From a phage, in the sequence record NC_101837.1: 64,000 nt of DNA; one strand, written 5' to 3'. This document shows positions 3,517 to 44,868 of the stretch, piece after piece. The translations under genes and the position numbers were made by a program. Each line of letters opens with the position of its first letter. Within the stretch, counting starts at the first letter, position 1. The notes under the pieces were generated by a model that saw only the letters and a program-made list of their open reading frames with translations, was not told where the DNA came from and made no database searches.

Positions 3517-4335
3517 TTGAGCAAGAAAGAGTCCAACGACAAATACTACACAAACCCTGAGTATGCAGAATATCTTGTTGGTAAAGTAAAAGATAAGTAT
3601 GGGAATTGTGCATACGTTGAGCCTTCTGCTGGAAGGGGTTCTTTTTCAAAACTATTTTCAGAGATACTGTCGTACGATTTAGTACCAGATCCTGAATTTG
3701 AAGGACCAACACCGTGCATTCAGGCAAACTTCTTGGAGGTGCATCCCAAGGCAGATGTCTTCATAGGTAACCCACCATTTGGCAAGAATTCATCCTTAGC
3801 TTGCAAATTCTTTAACCATTGTGCATCATTGCTAGAGCTTGGAGGGGCTATAGCCTTCATCTTGCCACGGACATTTGAAAAAATATTTTTTGCAAACAAA
3901 CTGGACATGTCGATGCACCTTGTCTACAGCGAAAGGTGCCCTAAGAATTCGTTTTTACTTAATGGCAAACCTTATGACGTGCCATGTGTTTTCCAAATTT
4001 GGGAGAAAAAGGCGTGCAATAGGGATCCTGTAGAGATTGGAGAGAATAAGTTATTTTCTTTTAGCACACCAGATGACTACGACTTCTGTGTAAGACGTGT
4101 TGGGTATAATGCTGGAAAAGTATTGGGGGATGATGACCCAAAATCTGAAGAATCAACATATTTCATAAAATCTTTAGTTGACGGTGTTGACAGAGTGTTT
4201 GCTGAATGCTATTCTTCTTTTCAAGAAGAAGCAGGTAAGACTGCTGGAATGAAGAGTATAGGTAAGAAAGAACTACAATACATTTTGGAGACCAGGTATG
4301 ATCAAAAGCATAGACTTGACCAAAGAACTTACTGA
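3517..4335 (+). CDS. DNA N6-adenine methyltransferase (gamma-class); start reassigned to in-frame TTG after GGAGG
   Basis: Motif X YYTNPEYA, motif I YVEPSAGRGSF, motif IV GNPPFG; the ORF-track start lies inside the upstream terminator. Confidence 0.6.
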   Translation: MSKKESNDKYYTNPEYAEYLVGKVKDKYGNCAYVEPSAGRGSFSKLFSEILSYDLVPDPEFEGPTPCIQANFLEVHPKADVFIGNPPFGKNSSLACKFFNHCASLLELGGAIAFILPRTFEKIFFANKLDMSMHLVYSERCPKNSFLLNGKPYDVPCVFQIWEKKACNRDPVEIGENKLFSFSTPDDYDFCVRRVGYNAGKVLGDDDPKSEESTYFIKSLVDGVDRVFAECYSSFQEEAGKTAGMKSIGKKELQYILETRYDQKHRLDQRTY

Positions 4336-5589: not shown

Positions 5590-6176
5590 TCGGAATTGAT
5601 GTAGATTTGACACTGGTAGATTCAGGAACAGCATGGTGGGAGTGGTTGGAGCGTTTGTATGGTCCAGCCAGTAAGACAGTCGCTAAACCTTCTAACGGAC
5701 TGATGTATTACGATCTGTCAAAGTATTGGCCTGATCGCCCCAAAGAAAACATCATAGGGCCTTTTGATTTCTGGAGTGACCCGTTCCTTTACGACTTTCT
5801 TAAGCCTGAAGAGGGGGCTATTGAGGTTATGAAAGATTTGGTGGCTCGTGGTCACAAGCTTGCGTTTATCTCGGTATGCAAGAAAGGTCACCTTGCATCT
5901 AAATCAAGGTTCTTAAAGCGTTGGACCAGTGATTTTATGGATCTGGACGATCACACCCAGGGCCACGGATTCTACGCCACACATTTCAAAGGGAATGTGG
6001 CTGTAGATGTTATAATTGACGACAGGCATGAATACCTGAACCAATTCGCTTCACGACCTGAAGTTATTAAAATCCTAAAAGATACGCCTTATGAGCAATT
6101 CGAGGAGTTAAAGGTCAGTATTGACTATGCCGCTAATAGCTGGTATAAAATAGGAAAGTTTTTAGAAGGTATTTGA
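5583..6176 (+). CDS. HAD-family 5'(3')-deoxyribonucleotidase-like
   Basis: N-terminal HAD motif I GIDVDLTL (DxDxT). Confidence 0.5.
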   Translation: MLIGIDVDLTLVDSGTAWWEWLERLYGPASKTVAKPSNGLMYYDLSKYWPDRPKENIIGPFDFWSDPFLYDFLKPEEGAIEVMKDLVARGHKLAFISVCKKGHLASKSRFLKRWTSDFMDLDDHTQGHGFYATHFKGNVAVDVIIDDRHEYLNQFASRPEVIKILKDTPYEQFEELKVSIDYAANSWYKIGKFLEGI

Positions 6177-8162: not shown

Positions 8163-10474
8163 TCACCAAGGTAATTAAAAGCAACGGATGTGAAGTGGCA
8201 TTCGATCCAGAACGTTTAAATAAGGCAGCTATTTTCGGTGACGACGGTAACGGCAATTGGTCACATATTGCACTGGATGCCTACAAGCGGTTGTATGATG
8301 GATGTACAACCAAAGAAGTTAACCAAGCTATTATAGACTCTTGTGTTAGCCGTAAAGACGAAGCACATTCCCGTATGGCTGGTCGTGTTCTTATTGGTCA
8401 GATTTATAAAGAGGCTTTTGGAGGGTTTACAAAGATCCCTTCCTTACCATCATTTTACAATACCATGGTTGAGAAAGGGTATTGGGAGGATATGGGCTAT
8501 AGCTTTACCGAGCTAAACACTTTAGACGCTGTTATTGACCACAGTAAAGATCTCGGTTATGGCTATGCAGTCCTTAAACAGTTTCGCGACAAATACGGGA
8601 TCAAGGATACTCTTAAAGACACCCTGTTTGAATCTCCCCAGATGATGTTTATGGGGATAGCAATGGCTGTCATGAAGAATATGCCGAAAGAACGTCGTAT
8701 CAACGATGTTGTAAAATTATACACTTATCTGTCCGACTTAAAGATCAATGCCCCGACACCGTACTTAAACGGGCTGCGCACAGGTAAGACAGGGTATGCA
8801 TCTTGTTGTGTAATAAAAGCTGACGATACAGCAAAATCTATTGGTGTGGCACGTGAAGTTGCGTACACAATGACGGTTAACCAAGCAGGTATCGGCTACT
8901 ACTTATCCTCAAGATCTGCAGGCGATGGTGTTCGTGGTAACACTATTAAACATATGGGTAAGATTCCATATTATCGAGGTATTGATGCTGGTGTTAAGGA
9001 GAACAGACAACAATCACGTGGCGGTTCTGCAACAGTATCATTCCTTGCACTGGACCCGCAGATTGATGAGCTAATCCGTTTGAGAAACCCTATGACTGTT
9101 GCTTCAAAAAGAATCAACACCATGGACTACTCCATCGGTATTAATAGGTCGTTTATCAACCGTGTGGCTAAGAATTTAGATTGGATGCTTGTTTCTTATA
9201 AGCACGCTCCTCAACTGCATGAGGGTATCTTCACCATGTCTATGGAGGAGTTCGATGCAGAGGTTGAGCGTATTGCTAAAGATGACAGTATTCCTAAAAC
9301 ATGGATCCGAGCCAGAGATCTTGCTGTTGAACTGATCACGCAGCGTACTGAGGTGGGAAGGCTGTATGTATACTGGACAGATGAGATGAATAGACATACA
9401 CCTTTTAAAGATGTGATCTATTCAAGTAACCTGTGTGCAGAAATAGCCCTCCCGACAAAAGGCTATTCAGATATGCGTAATATCTTCAAGTACGATGCTG
9501 ATGATGGAGAGGTTGCATTGTGCTTCCTGTCATCTCTTGTAGCTGGAAGGGTTACTCCAGAGGAGTATGAGGATGTTGCATACTACACGGTGCTTATGAT
9601 TGACAATGTTATGGAAATCATGACATATCCGTATGAAAATATGGAAAGCACAGTTAAAAAACGCAGATCCATCGGGGTTGGCCTTACCAATGTTGCACAT
9701 TTTATTGCCAGCCACAAGGTTACTTACGGGTCTCCTGAAAGTAAACAGCTCGTTCACGATCTTGCAGAACTTCACAGCTACAGCTTGCATAAGGCAAGTT
9801 TACGGTTGGCAAAAGAGCGTGGTGTCTGCGAGTGGATGCATAAAACAAAATATCCAGAAGGTTGGTTACCAATCGACACCTATAACAAAGAGGTCGATAG
9901 CGTGGTGAAAGATCCTTCTCTTAAACAGGATTGGGAAGGGTTACGTAAAGAAATCATTGAGAATGGTGGGCTACGTAATAGCGTTCTTGAAGCATATATG
10001 CCTAATGAAAGCTCTTCGCTGGCAACAAACACCACTAACGGGGTTTATCCTGTCCGTGAGCACATTATCTTTAAAAAGTCGCCACAAGGGCAGGTGCTGT
10101 TTATCGTTCCTGACTATGATGAGTTGAAAGAGTATTACACCTCGGCTTGGGACGTTGATACTAACGACATGATCGATATGTATGCCGTGATTCAAAAATT
10201 CACAGGTCAGGCAATCAGCGCGGATTTATACATAGACTACACCAAGTTGAAAGATGGTAAAATTTCAATGAAGGAGCAGTTAGGGTACCTTATCCGTGCC
10301 ACTAAATTCGGGATGAAGACATGGTATTATTTAAACTCTAGGGTTGGTGCTGGTGACTCCTTGGCAGAGGAACTTCATGCCAAGAAACAGGCTGAAGATG
10401 AAACCAGAAAGAACTATCCTTTGATTGCAGATAGTTCAGTTGAAGATCCGTATTGCGAAAGCTGTGCACTATAA
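8159..10474 (+). CDS. nrdA: ribonucleotide reductase class I large subunit
   Basis: N-terminal ATP-cone, NLCAEIALPT active-site region, 771 aa; TTG start after GGAGGA. Confidence 0.9.
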   Translation: MITKVIKSNGCEVAFDPERLNKAAIFGDDGNGNWSHIALDAYKRLYDGCTTKEVNQAIIDSCVSRKDEAHSRMAGRVLIGQIYKEAFGGFTKIPSLPSFYNTMVEKGYWEDMGYSFTELNTLDAVIDHSKDLGYGYAVLKQFRDKYGIKDTLKDTLFESPQMMFMGIAMAVMKNMPKERRINDVVKLYTYLSDLKINAPTPYLNGLRTGKTGYASCCVIKADDTAKSIGVAREVAYTMTVNQAGIGYYLSSRSAGDGVRGNTIKHMGKIPYYRGIDAGVKENRQQSRGGSATVSFLALDPQIDELIRLRNPMTVASKRINTMDYSIGINRSFINRVAKNLDWMLVSYKHAPQLHEGIFTMSMEEFDAEVERIAKDDSIPKTWIRARDLAVELITQRTEVGRLYVYWTDEMNRHTPFKDVIYSSNLCAEIALPTKGYSDMRNIFKYDADDGEVALCFLSSLVAGRVTPEEYEDVAYYTVLMIDNVMEIMTYPYENMESTVKKRRSIGVGLTNVAHFIASHKVTYGSPESKQLVHDLAELHSYSLHKASLRLAKERGVCEWMHKTKYPEGWLPIDTYNKEVDSVVKDPSLKQDWEGLRKEIIENGGLRNSVLEAYMPNESSSLATNTTNGVYPVREHIIFKKSPQGQVLFIVPDYDELKEYYTSAWDVDTNDMIDMYAVIQKFTGQAISADLYIDYTKLKDGKISMKEQLGYLIRATKFGMKTWYYLNSRVGAGDSLAEELHAKKQAEDETRKNYPLIADSSVEDPYCESCAL

Positions 10475-29808: not shown

Positions 29809-30108
29809 ATGTCTACAAAGGCGGCTAAATACTCCTATATGCCATCAACCTCTGCAGAGGTAGACTTTAGTTTCGATGTGTTTCCACTGTTTGAGGTGAT
29901 TCTGGCATACCCAACAATACTATCTACTCCTGAATCACTTGTACCTGTTAAGTTGCAGAACGCTATGCATTCTATGCACTACAACAATAAATGTAGGCAC
30001 AGATGGTGTCAGGACGAGGAAAAAGATTTGGATAGTTTGAGGGATTTTGACAGTCACCTTTTGACACCTTTCAGCTACTCCAACCTTGATAAGCCCTCAT
30101 GGGTATAG
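29809..30108 (+). CDS. hypothetical protein
   Basis: ATG after GAGGTGG RBS. Confidence 0.4.
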   Translation: MSTKAAKYSYMPSTSAEVDFSFDVFPLFEVILAYPTILSTPESLVPVKLQNAMHSMHYNNKCRHRWCQDEEKDLDSLRDFDSHLLTPFSYSNLDKPSWV

Positions 30109-30132
30109 CAAAATATCAAATTTAAGACACCT

Positions 30133-30159
30133 AGGACGCTCTGTGGCGTCCTTTTCTTT
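30133..30159 (+). terminator. intrinsic terminator
   Basis: AGGACGC-tctgtg-GCGTCCT hairpin followed by TTTCTTT. Confidence 0.65.
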
Positions 30160-30321
30160 ATCTGGTGCACGATTGCATACCTTGGACAGATAATCTCGTT
30201 ACAGAGCGTTTAAGAGCTTTCTACAAACAAGTCTCTCTTTCGAGCGTAGCGAGAACGCACGTCCGTTTTGACCCAAATCACCATACGCTCGGATTTTAAC
30301 CAAACCCTCGCGGCGTTTCTG

Positions 30322-30350
30322 TTGACACATTACCGCTCTCGTGATAGTAT
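30322..30350 (+). promoter_or_regulatory. sigma70-like promoter
   Basis: TTGACA-17 nt-TAGTAT. Confidence 0.5.
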
Positions 30351-30468
30351 CCACACATCGTTTGGAGAATATGGGATACACAATGAGAACATTGTCTGAA
30401 GTTTTAGTGGTGATCCTGATGATTATTACGTCCATAGCGGCTGTTGCCGGAATACTCACAGGTGGAAC

Positions 30469-30681
30469 ATGATCAACACACATGCATCTGAAGAGACATC
30501 CAAAGGAGTGACCATATGTCCATTGGCTGAGCCAGTGAAAGGGGAAAACTTCGATTCTGAAGATTCTCCATCTTCGCTCCAGGTAGATCCTGAGGCTGAT
30601 GACTTGACGTGGGGAGACATCGTAGATATCTGGTTCTCTATTATGCCTGAGCACGAAGAGTTCAGAGGTGGTAGACTATGA
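30469..30681 (+). CDS. hypothetical acidic protein
   Basis: 70 aa, AGGTGG RBS. Confidence 0.4.
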   Translation: MINTHASEETSKGVTICPLAEPVKGENFDSEDSPSSLQVDPEADDLTWGDIVDIWFSIMPEHEEFRGGRL

Positions 30682-30803
30682 AGCACCGAGCCCACACAGG
30701 TTCCTCATGCTAAAGCATGGCCTGAAGAGGCAAACGTGCATAATTCCAGCGTATTGGAACGCATAAAACCCTGTTCACACTCTCATTTTCCAGAGGAGAT
30801 TTC

Positions 30804-31019
30804 ATGAAGATAGAAATATTTGGTGGGGCTGACAACACTCGTGGCCTGATTTACCTTGAATTCGATGAATCATACCTGCCAGAGGTGTTAAATATAGACT
30901 CTGTTGCTGAGGCTTTGGGAGTAAACCCTAAAGAACTCCACTCTTGTGCTGAGATCGATGGTTGGGAAGAGACCATGAACATTGATTTCAGTGAAGTAGA
31001 GGATGAACCGCTGGACTGA
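30804..31019 (+). CDS. small acidic protein, family A-like; last plus-strand gene before the non-coding region
   Basis: MKIEIFGG..., acidic C-terminus EVEDEPLD. Confidence 0.45.
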   Translation: MKIEIFGGADNTRGLIYLEFDESYLPEVLNIDSVAEALGVNPKELHSCAEIDGWEETMNIDFSEVEDEPLD

Positions 31020-32549
31020 CACACAATTAGCTGCCCGGCTAAAGTGCTGGAAGCACCTATAACACATCTTTCAACTAAATTTCCTACCACCACAATCACT
31101 TACCTCCCACACATGACTGTTTGCTTGTTTAGTGAGCAGTCATGCCTTGACATTCTTGCCTATCTTGATAAAATTAAGTTCTTCTCTTTTCTTTTACCGA
31201 GTAATTCGGGTTTTCTGTTCTCTTCGGTTTGAAGGGGTATGGAGATACACCTGAGTGAACAGGGTGAACAACCGAACCTTTGGCTATGGCATTAGCATGG
31301 CGAAGCGGACGGGTGACGAAAGAGGGGCCGGAGGACACCAGTCACTGCCATATGATATATGGGTGATAACCTGAAGAGTCTGAATAAGTGTTTAAGTACC
31401 AGTCAGAGGAAAAGGTGAATGGTAGCCGAAGGGGGATGGGGGGTTTCTTGTATCTTTAATTTGTATATTATGTATACACTTGTAAACCAATCTCATCTGA
31501 ATCTGTTTACCACACAAAGCGGATAGAGACAAATATCACCTATTAAACTTGAATTATTTATAGAAAATACCACAACACCAATTAAGTCTTTGATTTTAAA
31601 CACAAATCCTACAGATATTCAACCTCCATATTTAACATACTCGTAACATATTCCATACTCTACCTGTCTGATCAATTTACCCAACTACATCCCCATATTT
31701 TCCCTGTCTGTACTACCCCATCCCCGCCGGGAGTCCCGTCATATCTGGCTTTCCAGCAAATATCACACCCACAAATATCATTGCCTGAAGAGGGTTTCAT
31801 CCCATAATACATGCCTTACATGAAGAGCGCTTCATACACCACGTAAATTTTTTAATTGACCTCCCCGCCGCCGGAGAGGTTGGCTTTTCCCCACACAGAC
31901 CTGAAGAGTCAGCCAGAAATATCTGAACAGGTCCAGTTCTGCCTTGTCATGAGCCGTAGCGACTGGAGTGCTGCCAGGCGGACGGAATGGGAATACTTCT
32001 CATTCTTATAATAATTCTCAAATATCGAGGCAGTGAGGCAAATTAATAGGTGAGGCCGTTCACACAGTGGCACAACATTTGCAATCTATTTTGTGGGGGT
32101 GAATGAGAATACCTATCATTGTGAGAACTGTTATCATTACGGGCAATTTAACATAATACCCATTATGCGCACCACTGGCGATCCATACAGGGATTGATAA
32201 CATGAGTTACAGTTTACGCATATAACAATCATATTTCTTACTATTTGTGTGGGATATAGTTAGCAGCCGATAGATTAGATATTGACCTGTGGACTTCCAA
32301 CCGTCTAGACGTCTAAACGCCCACACAACAAGGATTATACATACATTACTGAATGTAAACAGGGCCGCAAAAATGCTACCATACCAGTTTGTAAATTTTT
32401 CATGCAGCACTTGACAAAGAGAGGAAAAACTTGTCTGACATGCTGGGCATACTTCACACCTTAAACATACTCAACACTGGATACAATAACAATTGTTACT
32501 ATTGCATGCCTCACTGTTCACGTATAGACTATTTGCTCAAAAATGATAA

Positions 32550-32569
32550 GCCATGCCATTCGTTTGCAT
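32550..32569. repeat. 20-bp direct repeat, copy 1 (GCCATGCCATTCGTTTGCAT)
   Basis: Exact 20-mer repeated at 32822-32841. Confidence 0.7.
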
Positions 32570-32654
32570 GATAACAATAACGATCAACAACAATAAAGAC
32601 TGAAATGATAACGTTGTTGATTTGACTGACTAACAATTAACAGGCTAATAATCT

Positions 32655-32798
32655 ATGACATAATATAAAAGCAGGGCAACTATTAGCAGATCTATAGTTG
32701 CCTTGCTTGTTATGTCATGATTAACTAAATACAAGGCAACTATGATCTGATTAATAGTTTGCAGACAAACTATCACGGGGGTGATGGTTACTGCTTTT
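32655..32798. repeat. iteron-like cluster bracketed by an 18-bp inverted repeat
   Basis: ATGACATAATATAAAAGCAG ... CTGCTTTTATATTATGTC arms enclose at least 5 copies of GGCAACTAT / ATAGTT(T)GCC in both orientations. Confidence 0.65.
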
Positions 32799-32821
32799 AT
32801 ATTATGTCGCGACTCCGTCGC

Positions 32822-32841
32822 GCCATGCCATTCGTTTGCAT
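32822..32841. repeat. 20-bp direct repeat, copy 2
   Basis: Identical to 32550-32569; followed by a further ATAGTTGCC copy. Confidence 0.7.
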
Positions 32842-33502
32842 AGTTGCCTTATTGTTACAGATAAAATAATTGTATTGTTAATTATTTCTTATCTTTCTAT
32901 TAGTCATCTAATGATTCCAGTTAGTATAGTAACGTACAGTAAACATTAGACGACTAAAGATTTCTCTGATTATGATAACTTGCCGTGACAATTTCAGACT
33001 GTTTACGAAAAATGTTGACACCTGAGCTGATTTATGTTATGCAATTTAAACGAATAATTATTTTATGCAGGTATTGACTATTCTGTTATCCTATGGTCGG
33101 AATAAATACTTAGCAGGCTATAGAATGGTGAGCGTACGTAAATTCTGAGATCTGTCGGCTATAGTTATACTCGATTTTTCACGTAGAACACGCTTTTTGG
33201 TTTGTGTAAGTGTATGACTTATAAAGATTTTTAGTTGTTGACAAGATATTGAAGATGTGCATCAGGTTAAATTTTGTGCAATAGCTGCATTACGTGCAAT
33301 TTTGGAAGGAAAACGGGTAAAAATAGCACCGCTACCACACAATGAAAGGTTATGCAATAGTTATTTTACATGTATATTTGTACAGTGTGTGGGATTGATG
33401 GCTCGTCAATTATTCCACTTGCCAGGTAGGGCCGTTTATGGTAGGGAGGAAGAGCAGACAAAAAGAAAGGGACCTAAGCCCCTTGATAATTCAGTTAAAA
33501 AA

Positions 33503-33922
33503 TTATAATGATTCGTATATTTCAAAAATCCGATTTGCCAGGTCGTTACGGTACCGGAATTTTTCATCACGTTTGATCATAAGATCTTTATAGCCGTACT
33601 CTTTAAGCACTTCATTAACTTTATGGCGGCACACCTTCATATTATCCTGAGCGTCACCAATAAACCTGTTGCTATGGTGCATGGCTTTAATTTCTTCTTC
33701 CAGGACCAGGGCAACTATGCGGACCGGATCAAGCTGATAGGCGGTAACATCCATGCGGCATTGTAAACGGCTTTTTACGTCTGCCACCGGATATACTGCA
33801 ACCTCTTCCCCGTCAACATTGACAATAATTAGTTTACCATCGATTTCGAATCCTTTCGCCGCCGGACCGTGACAAAAAGCGTTATCAAAGCTATATGCCG
33901 GATTATTAGATTTAATGTTCAT
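33503..33922 (-). CDS. hypothetical protein
   Basis: 139 aa, AAGAGG RBS. Confidence 0.5.
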   Translation of the reverse strand: MNIKSNNPAYSFDNAFCHGPAAKGFEIDGKLIIVNVDGEEVAVYPVADVKSRLQCRMDVTAYQLDPVRIVALVLEEEIKAMHHSNRFIGDAQDNMKVCRHKVNEVLKEYGYKDLMIKRDEKFRYRNDLANRIFEIYESL

Positions 33923-34065
33923 GGTGTTTTTACCTCTTAGTTAATTTTCTTACAACTTCCCTTCAAAAAAGAATATAGCAAAACTGCCGATCCCTGTCAA
34001 CCAGGGATAGCATAATTTTTATGTGATCAAGGGGCTTTAAGCCCCTGACCGTGCACCTTGTTGTA

Positions 34066-34329
34066 TTATTTGTTGCTCATCCAGTTTTCCCAAGCTGCCT
34101 GATAATCTGCCTCACTACGGCGGATCTCTTCTTGCTCTTCAAGTCGGATCTCTTCTTCCAGGTACCCCAAGATGTCAGCCTTTTTGGTCTGGCGTAGCAT
34201 CCAGTCATCTTTTTTGCGAGTGAAGATCTTATAAGCTTTCTCGCAAACCTCTTTTTTGCTACCTTTCTGGACTTCAAGAACACGATAAGCCATATATTGA
34301 ACTAATTTGAGCTGATCAAGGCGTTTCAT
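34066..34329 (-). CDS. hypothetical charged protein
   Basis: 87 aa, AAGAGG RBS. Confidence 0.5.
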   Translation of the reverse strand: MKRLDQLKLVQYMAYRVLEVQKGSKKEVCEKAYKIFTRKKDDWMLRQTKKADILGYLEEEIRLEEQEEIRRSEADYQAAWENWMSNK

Positions 34330-34391
34330 GATGTTTTTCCTCTTTATGTGGTTTTTGTTTAGTGGGCCTTTTGGCCCGTGTCATTATCTTA

Positions 34392-34664
34392 TTACTTACG
34401 GCGGCAGAATTCAAGCGTTTTTAATTGATAATCTTCCTCAGCCTGGAGTACAACCGCCTCGATCATTTCGTTGGCATTGTTGAAGCCATATCCTTTAGCG
34501 AATTCATCCGCACCACCTTCGTGATCATGTTCTGCGTTCATCGCTTCCACGAAATGGAATTCAAGATTATTGAGATAAGGGCTTGATGTTCCGTCCTCTT
34601 TTTCGATGAGATCCCAAATAGCATTGAAACGTGATTCAACTTCTTGGTTAATCCAGCTTAACAT
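34392..34664 (-). CDS. hypothetical acidic protein (start at internal Met with RBS)
   Basis: GAGAGG RBS before MLSWINQ... Confidence 0.5.
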   Translation of the reverse strand: MLSWINQEVESRFNAIWDLIEKEDGTSSPYLNNLEFHFVEAMNAEHDHEGGADEFAKGYGFNNANEMIEAVVLQAEEDYQLKTLEFCRRK

Positions 34665-34767: not shown

Positions 34768-34815
34768 ATAGCAGGCACACCCGGTGATTGTCTCCCCCCC
34801 GTCGCCAGGTGCCTG
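34768..34815. repeat. GC-rich ~48-nt intergenic element (inverted copy of the 43723-43772 element)
   Basis: GCAGGCAC...CCGGTGATTGTCTCCCCC...GGTGCCTGC; reverse complement matches CGGCAGGCACC...GACGGGGGAGACAA.CACC at 43723. Confidence 0.55.
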
Positions 34816-34877
34816 CCGTGAAACAAGTATAACAAAAAACAGGACCATTGCAAGCCCTGTTTTGTAGTTTATAAGGA

Positions 34878-43525: not shown

Positions 43526-43722
43526 TTTTGTACCTCCTCTTCAATTGTTTACCCTACAGTATGGGCCTACCAGGTTTGCAAGATTTCACCCTCTCCCACC
43601 TGGTCAGTTAGGTCCTGCCAGGCTGGCCCCGCCAGGTTGCAGCGGTTAGCGCATCAGGTTAGAAAAATTTTTTGAAAAGTGTTGACAGCGGCCCCGACAG
43701 GTGGCACAATATACCTATCGAA

Positions 43723-43772
43723 AGGACGGCAGGCACCGGTGACGGGGGAGACAACCACCAGGGATGGGCGCT
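43723..43772. repeat. GC-rich intergenic element (forward copy; partial third copy at 43865-43905)
   Basis: CGGCAGGCACCGGTGACGGGGGAGACAACCACCAGGG; related GGCCGGGAGACAATCACCGGGCC at 43877. Confidence 0.55.
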
Positions 43773-44039
43773 GCATAAAATGAGAACGGTTATCATTATC
43801 ATTTAAAAATTTATGCAAAAAATCCTTGCTTTCTTTGTCCTGTGTGATACTATAATAACAAGCCGGGGCAACAGGGGCCGGGAGACAATCACCGGGCCTG
43901 CCCGTTATTCTGCAAACGAGAATGATTATCATTCAAGATTCTAAATGAGAACTCCTCGCATTTAATAAATTTAATTAGCACGCTAATTACCCTCCGTAAC
44001 AATTTACTATAAAATAGTATCCACTAAAATATTCCCATA

Positions 44040-44510
44040 TAGAAATTTTAAAAATCCATTTCTGAAAACGAAAAATCGATTTCGTCCCCAAAAATTTCAG
44101 GTTGAGAGCCGGAACGATTTCCAGAAAATCCGATTCAGAAAACGAAAAACAGGTCGAGTACTGAGAAATTTATCGAGAAAAATTTTCAGAAAATCCAAGC
44201 CCTGAAATGAAAAGTAGATCGAGTACCTGGAAAGCTGCACCGCAACTTCAAGATAGCGGTTAGATTGTTACCATAGAAGGTCAAGGGTAAGTGGAGGAAG
44301 TTCTAGTAGAGGGAGGTTAGCATGTGTGGGAAATCTATAATGGTGGCCTGGAATATGGTGCAAACGATAGGATGAGTTATTCAGCTTGTCGCGCCTACTC
44401 TGAAAAATCCATTTTAGTTTTCGATCCATTTTCTGATTTTCTAAGAATTTTAAAATATCCAGCCCGGTGAAATATCAAAAGGAGGAAATCCATTTTAGAA
44501 ATCCCCCTTA
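44040..44510. repeat. degenerate direct-repeat array (core GAAAATCC(A/G)(A/T)TT, at least 5 copies) in a 1.1 kb non-coding region
   Basis: aaaatccatttctgaaaacgaaaaatcga / cagaaaatccgattcagaaaacgaaaaac / cagaaaatccaagccctgaaatgaaaag / gaaaaatccattttag / ggaaatccattttag. Confidence 0.6.
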
Positions 44511-44538
44511 TACTTGATATGCCAGGAATTTTCAAGTA

Positions 44539-44868
44539 TCAGTTGTCTTTGTTTTTAGGTTTGTACATGCGCAGAGGTATGGTCTTTGTAACATTCCATT
44601 TCCTCAACCCTTCCCAGCTCCAGTTGTGGGCGTGGTATCCGGTTATGCATGCACTACTGGAGTGATCGTAAGCATAAGAGAACGCTAAGCGCACCAGGTG
44701 GGGCCAGTCCTTCCATGGTTGTGGACCGTAAGCTTTTCTCCAACACCGACACAAACTAAATGTCTCAAGAATAGGAAGGATAACAAATCCATACACCGCC
44801 ACCAGAATAGCCAGCGCAATGATTGTCAGGAATACATACCCTGCAGTTGAAATGATGATCTCTGTCAT
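44539..44868 (-). CDS. membrane protein
   Basis: N-terminal TM IISTAGYVFLTIIALAILVAVYGFVILPI. Confidence 0.45.
   Translation of the reverse strand: MTEIIISTAGYVFLTIIALAILVAVYGFVILPILETFSLCRCWRKAYGPQPWKDWPHLVRLAFSYAYDHSSSACITGYHAHNWSWEGLRKWNVTKTIPLRMYKPKNKDN

Follow-up and report, generated by a model that had tools for sequence, protein, structure and literature searches.

Introduction

The genome of phage T7 has a short, exact direct terminal repeat (DTR) of 160 bp, and its repeats must be duplicated during the cleavage of concatemers. A hairpin intermediate containing the T7 repeat has been reported (Chung et al. 1990, as described in a paper that cites it), and the way in which short terminal repeats are regenerated from concatemers is unsettled even for this phage. 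Here, we describe a gap of ~2.2 kb (positions 31020-33256) in a 64,000-nt stretch of sequence record NC_101837.1. This stretch, referred to below as the window, is, judging from its sequence, a Vequintavirus (rV5-like coliphage). We suggest that the gap is the place where the two ends of the chromosome have been joined, and that a palindrome cassette next to the terminal repeat may act in the maturation or packaging of these ends.

The gap resembles the ends of T7 in its layout. Shared features are a short exact DTR, an array of short degenerate repeats that abuts it, a gene-free leader of ~1 kb, and a promoter that points into the junction. In the T7 sequence, which we inspected, the array consists of CCTAAAG with a 13-nt period at 175-341, directly after the DTR; in the window, the array at 32436-32549 likewise abuts the repeat and is accompanied by a gene-free leader. 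Nevertheless, the longest inverted repeat (IR) arms near the T7 ends measure 10-12 nt at ~90% with no long perfect palindrome, and the T7 leader promoters drive early genes that face inward, whereas the genes flanking the gap face outward. There is no sequence similarity between T7 and the window.

Much closer are the phages LL12, HdK5, EdH4, and Gotham, which carry the same element with the same boundaries, at 92-96% identity, in the same gap between "convergent" transcripts. In sister genera, phi92 (Justusliebigvirus) has annotated 343-bp DTRs, and a 514-bp DTR was established for KPP-1 (Mydovirus) from 2x coverage and PhageTerm. Both share with the window a cassette with a perfect outer IR and a GC-rich mini-hairpin, as well as dyad boxes within the DTR; phi92 also has a G-loop hairpin in its cassette, as does the window. 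By contrast, the arm sequences, repeat lengths, and internal hairpins differ, and the match to the Fur consensus is 15-17/19 in these phages versus <14/19 in the window.

Two findings had already been published for near-identical phages: that there is a non-coding gap (2013) and that the 459-bp repeat lies within it (2019). The 2013 genome paper on rV5 drew the segment as a grey box that "contained no ORFs" (open reading frames), and its authors expected a bidirectional terminator between genes 163 and 164, which they did not find. The reports on LL12, HdK5/EdH4, and Gotham give the length and position of the repeat, without the palindrome cassette, the variable array, or the ultra-conserved block at the left of the gap. 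We found no description of these three features or of the conservation of the cassette in two subfamilies, which therefore appear to be undescribed. Deposited rV5-like genomes are mostly presented as circular, and the 2-kb "non-coding" box that they show at a supposed convergence of transcription goes unexplained; depositors leave the segment unannotated or fill it with tiny hypothetical ORFs. Reading this box as joined chromosome ends would fix both the opening and the annotation of such genomes. Their annotation matters because collections for therapy and biocontrol often contain these phages. In addition, easily grown E. coli phages with a covarying palindrome at a fixed offset, and a possible deletion variant (FV3), would offer a handle on hairpin models or on an origin.

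Terminal Repeat and Genome Ends

The position of the ends can be read from the close relatives of the window. The terminal redundancy of LL12 was mapped by PhageTerm and reported as nonpermuted (PMC6658697), and its 459-bp repeat aligns from 1 to 459 with window positions 31977-32435, ungapped and at 96.1% identity. The HdK5 record starts at window position 31977, ends at 32435, and holds an exact 459-bp repeat at both ends, in line with the "short terminal redundancies of 458 bp" that Korf et al. gave for HdK5 and EdH4 (PMC6563267). Similarly, the Gotham record (GenBank MT682716) annotates repeat_regions at 1-459 and 136567-137025, and the YN3 record has an exact 458-bp repeat at both ends. 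Other records show the same boundaries in window coordinates: bov10K2, bov11CS3, and bov22_2 all open at 31977, with bov22_2 closing at 31976, and ECP2303 and Aya end at 32435. In total, at least eight independent records use the same two boundary bases, at least five of them in addition to HdK5, Gotham, and YN3. The permuted ends and the lack of a fixed right end that characterize headful (pac) packaging are thus not observed, in agreement with the nonpermuted ends of LL12. Close relatives instead have the same sequence at each virion end with fixed boundaries, as in T7-type genomes, and this extends to the window by homology.

An alignment of 14 genomes (the window and 13 relatives), used for most of the comparisons below, gives the same picture. 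Conservation of the DTR is 92-98%, its boundary sequences are invariant, and the DNA immediately outside either boundary is hypervariable. Beyond the genus, the DTRs of KPP-1 and phi92 sit in the same gene-free gap, and the boundary sequences of the KPP-1 repeat are homologous to those of the window. As far as sequence can tell, 31977-32435 is a 459-bp repeat present at both virion ends, with the ends of this particular phage assigned by homology.

An earlier sequence-only reading had proposed that the region is a replication origin, a packaging site, or a genome end. The last of these options is borne out by the match to the LL12 repeat and by three records that carry the repeat at both ends; the emphasis on the palindromic cluster is not, as the cluster lies outside the repeat and the repeat itself had escaped notice. 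That reading also saw here the convergence of two transcription blocks. Indeed, plus-strand ORFs and positive GC skew stop at ~31.0 kb, and from 33.5 kb onward the ORFs are on the minus strand. This appearance arises because the assembly joined the two ends of a linear chromosome and collapsed two repeat copies into one; it reflects collapse or circularisation in the assembly and not a convergence zone in the virion.

A different outcome of assembly is seen in Shigella phage CM1 (MK962749.1), where the match at 104503-107338 spans ~600 bp beyond the query and hits the repeat twice. The CM1 assembly probably kept both terminal-repeat copies in tandem.

Palindrome Cassette

Inward of the left-end repeat, at a distance of 115-406 bp, lies a cassette that consists, in this order, of a 20-bp repeat, a nested palindrome, a GC-rich mini-hairpin, and a second copy of the 20-bp repeat (Table 1). 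The palindrome starts 221 nt inward of the DTR, outside the repeat itself. Its predicted fold is one nested hairpin closed by an 18-bp outer stem, in which the copies of GGCAACTAT pair together in the inner arms. Folded as DNA, the 211 nt of 32650-32860 reach -48.9 kcal/mol (z = -10.1), and the palindrome folded as RNA has z = -8.5.

Several of these elements had been noticed from the sequence alone. The 18-bp inverted repeat is real and perfect, with its first arm at 32657-32674 where 32655-32674 had been given and its second at 32791-32808 in place of 32781-32798, and the 20-bp direct repeat (32550 and 32822) is confirmed as exact, being invariant in 13-14 of the 14 genomes. The cluster was also said to be iteron-like and to enclose five or more copies of GGCAACTAT. 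At one mismatch or less, there are only four (32675+, 32694-, 32735+, and 32840-), and the motif is not enriched window-wide. There is no tandem direct-repeat array, so the term iteron-like does not apply: the copies are paired arms of one nested palindrome. Tandem Repeats Finder reported no array in the window's own copy of the region.

The gap as a whole is well represented among relatives, as 121 phage records, essentially all of Vequintavirus, match it at 90-97% identity. Being syntenic and conserved in related phages, which was to be checked, the segment is no recent insertion of unrelated DNA. Within it, the cassette stands out. The palindrome arms are invariant in 14/14 genomes, 32669-32868 is conserved beyond the neighbouring genes, and the 206-nt block 32655-32860 is at least 99% identical in 77 of 119 genomes, a level that no genome reaches over the whole region. 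rV5 and "Campylobacter phage" A147, and probably LL12 too, have a 33-nt insertion at the centre of the palindrome (window 32709), which accounts for 10 database genomes at 80-90% identity.

The comparison was extended to four other lineages, namely L006 (a divergent vequinta-like contig), KPP-1, the Phapecoctavirus L008, and phi92. All of them have the same cassette architecture at the same place, including counterparts of the GC mini-hairpin. In the lineages with a known or inferred DTR, the start of the cassette lies at a similar distance inward of it: 221 nt in the window, ~324 in L006, 308 in KPP-1, and 251 in phi92. The outer arms differ in sequence, being GACATAATAACGCTGAG in L006, AGCGACACAATAACACGGGAG in KPP-1, GCTAATAATAAGCCA in L008, and GCTAATAATAACGCA in phi92, and yet each is 100% complementary to its partner. 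This turnover of arm sequence with complementarity kept points to selection that acts either on pairing within a strand or on a protein site with dyad symmetry. An automatic alignment of the palindromes of four lineages misregistered the arms, and an arms-only version misplaced L008; hence, the length of the perfect IR in each lineage was compared with shuffled sequences. The outer perfect IR exceeds 200/200 shuffles in the four lineages tested (window, L006, KPP-1, and L008), and at the corresponding position phi92 has a perfect outer IR of 15 nt. In L006, the palindrome is flanked by its own matched pair of direct repeats (GCGCCATGTTATCGTTGCATA). On these comparisons of sequence, the two copies of the 20-bp repeat are seen to evolve in concert.

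Possible Roles of the Cassette

We consider the region to be the concatemer junction of a genome with T7-like, short, non-permuted DTRs, in which the cassette would be a cis-acting element for end maturation or packaging, and we give this explanation a probability of about 0.6. The genes on both sides are transcribed toward the chromosome ends. Each concatemer junction would hold one repeat, which would have to be duplicated there, and terminase or an associated nuclease would cut the concatemers at the two boundaries, between GCTGCCA and GGCGGAC at one and between CTTGACAAAGAG..CTTGTC and TGACA at the other. In the maturation or packaging step, the cassette would be a signal, be it by extruding as a hairpin or cruciform or by offering a protein a binding site with dyad symmetry. 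The short-repeat array, the dyad boxes in the DTR, and the promoter at 31147 would be accessory parts of the same terminal architecture. A more specific version is tentative, and we regard it as possible rather than probable: the cassette, conserved across Vequintavirinae and Stephanstirmvirinae, might extrude as a hairpin or cruciform while concatemers mature and in this form prime or direct terminal-repeat duplication or initiate replication near the ends, and the dyad boxes of the DTR, which resemble Fur boxes in sister genera, might recruit a DNA-bending factor of the host or the phage.

Some observations weigh against this explanation. The ends of this phage are taken by homology from relatives, with read-based evidence confined to LL12 and KPP-1, and two papers (PMC8407724 and PMC13211470) call vequintaviruses circularly permuted or headful. 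The first of these used Nextera libraries, and its records, in their later versions, open at 31977. Because T7 has no comparable perfect palindrome, the link between the cassette and end processing is one of position and analogy, and protein binding or hairpin extrusion by the cassette is putative. Finally, the FV3 record (L018, ~1608-1660) joins copy 1 of the 20-bp repeat straight to the sequence that follows copy 2, so that the palindrome is precisely lost. The deletion may be real and viable, or it may be an artefact of the kind by which long palindromes are classically lost in cloning or assembly; if real, it would make the cassette dispensable for plaque formation. Among the roles of the cassette, we nevertheless place end maturation or packaging first, an origin second, and a function at the RNA level third.

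As an origin, or one of several, the cassette would act together with the adjacent AT-rich DNA: an initiator would bind the 20-bp repeats and the arms, and the stretch of 31-34% GC would unwind. Iteron origins such as lambda ori and plasmid oriV also combine repeats and dyad symmetry beside AT-rich DNA, and here an invariant repeat pair brackets a structured element in such a setting. Moreover, the concerted evolution of the pair is what would be seen for initiator sites that co-evolve with their protein. The window, however, has only two direct repeats, 272 bp apart, where iterons are three or more in tandem of ~17-22 bp, and no adjacent initiator gene was identified. Three perfect tandem DnaA boxes (TTATCCACA) are found in the putative DTR of L006 (7845-7884, on the minus strand of the locus), a hint that replication functions may sit near these ends; no such box occurs at one mismatch or less in 31000-33500 or in KPP-1, and perfect boxes are also absent from L008. 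The switch in skew follows the direction of transcription and the genome ends, in agreement with the rV5 paper, the flanking genes on both sides face the site, which is unusual for an origin, and the FV3 record lacks the element. We therefore hold an origin to be unlikely, if the best of the alternatives.

Even less probable is a role at the RNA level, in which the palindrome would be a bidirectional terminator or barrier that protects the ends, and 31169-31418 a small non-coding RNA expressed from the promoter at 31147. A bidirectional terminator is what the rV5 authors expected here, the side hairpin at 32768-32789 with its T-run scores as terminator-like, and the RNA fold of the palindrome is far more stable than chance. 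The promoter and the first hairpin behind it are also kept in L006 with a compensatory change. Nevertheless, transcripts of the linear virion chromosome would run off its ends, a multi-branch palindrome of 152 bp far exceeds what termination needs, and the sole promoter-like site that faces the palindrome sits in hypervariable DNA. The putative RNA, in turn, has no Rfam match, and its block folds no better than shuffled sequence. It is still harder to see the cassette as a resident selfish or neutral element, MITE-like or a by-product of recombination, that does nothing for the phage. Inverted repeats at its ends with direct repeats beside them, the precise loss in the FV3 record, and a gap that accepts insertions such as the HNH homing-endonuclease gene of L006 would all suit such an element. 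The direct repeats, however, stand 87 and 13 nt from the arms and so are not target-site duplications, and five lineages from two subfamilies have the cassette in the same syntenic position, with arms perfectly complementary despite their turnover and with conservation beyond that of neighbouring genes. We consider this last alternative very improbable.

Other Features of the Gap

Table 1. Features in and next to the gap, in window coordinates (strand left empty where none applies).
Feature	Position	Strand	Remarks
Sigma-70-type promoter (predicted), TTGACA-16-TAAAAT, extended -10 TG	31147-31174	+	Points toward terminal repeat
Ultra-conserved non-coding block	31169-31418		Opens with hairpin and T-run, 31197-31220
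Module of ~55-85 nt, two copies (CCCCGCCGG...GGCTTTCC...AAATATCA...CCTGAAGAG)	31716-31800, 31860-31914	+	
AAATATCA-type repeats	31758, 31773, 31917, also 31531	+	
Indel-rich variable zone	31919-31965		Adjoins left DTR boundary; mean identity 0.78; 44-nt insertions in 6 relatives
Direct terminal repeat, 459 bp	31977-32435		Left physical end 31977 (GGCGGACGGAATGGG...), right 32435 (...AAAAACTTGTC)
Two tandem dyad boxes inside DTR	32102-32138	+	AATGAGAAT-N-CCTATCATT and GTGAGAAC-N3-TTATCATT
Copy-number-variable degenerate short-repeat array	32436-32549		Abuts DTR; TGACAYAATRG..., then ...CTGTTYACGC...
20-bp direct repeat, copy 1 (GCCATGCCATTCGTTTGCAT)	32550-32569	+	Invariant island amid hypervariable DNA
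Nested palindrome, 152 bp	32657-32808		Cruciform- or hairpin-capable (predicted)
Palindrome outer arms, perfect, 18 nt	32657-32674 / 32791-32808		200/200 shuffles fall short
Palindrome side hairpin, GGGGG loop	32768-32789		Followed by T-run
GC-rich mini-hairpin, CGCGAC-TCC-GTCGCG	32808-32822		Directly after palindrome
20-bp direct repeat, copy 2	32822-32841	+	Exact match to copy 1, 272 bp apart
AT-rich gene-free leader	32842-33466		GC 0.31-0.34; reaches minus-strand block terminator 33484-33467

The short-repeat array beside the DTR becomes visible only in the multi-genome alignment, where its identity is 0.71-0.80 with many indels. The dyad boxes within the DTR have conserved half-sites and a spacer that varies freely, and one relative carries both boxes inverted in place. 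Their equivalents are annotated as repeat_region in phage navn, and further ones occur in the L008 gap and within the phi92 and KPP-1 DTRs. The sequence-only reading had pointed to two motifs near 32101-32140, and rightly so, since GAGAAYNNNTATCATT occurs twice at 32105-32138 and four times in the window, against 0.3 expected.

The resemblance of these boxes to Fur sites was considered as well. Classical Fur boxes were rejected for the gap region of the window, where there are no matches of at least 14/19 to GATAATGATAATCATTATC. A looser 7-1-7 pattern with up to three mismatches is enriched in the window (19 versus 5.6 expected). In the sister genera, the dyad boxes in or near the DTRs match the E. 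coli Fur-box consensus at 15-17/19, and 0/300 shuffles reach these counts; the boxes are at 1742-1763 and 1937-1958 in phi92 (L028), at 7632-7650 in L008, and at 3737-3819 in KPP-1 (L017). Judged by this match, sites for Fur or a Fur-like protein at the genome ends of the sister genera are possible.

At the left of the gap, the predicted promoter matches the consensus at 11/12 positions, is the best plus-strand site in 29.5-35 kb, and is kept in the divergent L006 as TTGCAA-17-TATAAT. The block that follows is ~100% identical in the 13 relatives, versus 86-97% for the flanking genes; 41 of 117 database genomes are at least 99% identical to it and all are at least 95% identical. Compared with this block, L006 has indels that are not multiples of 3, and the pairing of the first hairpin is kept through a compensatory change. 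As RNA, the block is not predicted to fold more stably than shuffled sequences (z = -0.8), and one diverged homolog only is available for covariation. The block may be transcribed from the promoter or serve as a recognition site for a protein. A kinship between its G-rich part (~31.3 kb) and the hairpin modules at 43.7-43.9 kb was considered and dropped, as BLAST gave no match.

Further right, the motifs of the two repeated modules recur left of the DTR in L006, KPP-1 (GACCTGAAGTGTCAGCC and AAATATCA twice), and L008. These motifs had been partly recognized before: CCTGAAGAG is indeed overrepresented, with eight copies in the window, three of them in the gap, versus 0.48 expected, and CCCCGCCGG occurs once, its supposed second copy being CCCCGCCGCCGG. 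The copies of CCTGAAGAG (5805, 6672, 13562, 30721, 31370, 31784, 31900, and 61674) are always on the transcribed strand. Those at 5805, 6672, 13562, and 61674 lie in gene blocks, where they presumably encode Pro-Glu-Glu in frame, and that at 30721 falls between two ORFs. No variation is seen in the three gap copies, L006 has four of its own, and KPP-1 has only variants (GACCTGAAGTGTCAGCC). A hammerhead or other ribozyme, suggested by the resemblance of CUGAAGAG to CUGANGA, was rejected because there is no Rfam match at E<=1.

In L006, the non-coding DNA left of the repeat also contains an ORF of 256 aa (8716-9486) with an HNH_3 homing-endonuclease domain (E = 1.6e-18). The gap thus tolerates mobile insertions.

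Coding Content, Composition, and Neighbouring Regions

The absence of a credible ORF or tRNA from the gap, as originally described, agrees with both the ORF tests and the tRNA search. In the 14-genome alignment, the flanking gene 30804-31019 has substitutions of the coding type (9/4/35 by codon position); this excess at the third position is absent from all ORFs inside the gap, most of which are broken in the 13 relatives. For instance, ORF 33257-33508, the sole ORF in 32842-33466, is intact in only 1/13. Hidden small genes are thus ruled out by ORF integrity, codon-position substitution counts, and the non-triplet indels of L006. The search of the gap for tRNAs yielded none, with no relics of tRNA or tmRNA, and Rfam was searched over the whole window at gathering score and over 30000-34500 at E<=1, in neither case with a match. 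In the literature searched, no transcriptome of the rV5-like group was found.

The gap had also been called AT-rich, which holds for its right half (GC 0.31-0.35 for 32436-33256) and not for its left, where the GC content of 31020-31976 is 0.43, the window mean. At 32842-33256 it is 0.31, so that an AT-rich stretch adjoins the palindrome cassette.

Away from the gap, there is a second ORF-free island at 43530-44540, within the minus-strand block. It contains two plus-strand modules that run from a promoter to a hairpin (~43726-43770 and ~43866-43905) and share the loop GGGAGACAAYCACC, each followed by a dyad box of the DTR type (43779-43797 and 43915-43933). A third module, on the minus strand at 34780-34819 (region 34780-34853), lies behind a TTGCAA-16-TATACT promoter. 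These three promoter-hairpin modules, which have no Rfam match, are a candidate family of small RNAs, proposed from their sequence.

Next to the gap, the gene 33503-33922 (region 33484-34058) encodes 139 aa with no Pfam domain and has ~90% protein identity in Phapecoctavirus. HdK5, FV3, and Gotham lack it, as APCEc02 and PMBT16 apparently do, and it is therefore an accessory gene. A search for loci related to it returned three from IMG/VR. Lastly, ~18 "UNVERIFIED Campylobacter phage" records (GenBank MG0656xx) are 88-95% identical to this region of an E. coli vequintavirus, which makes their host label look doubtful.

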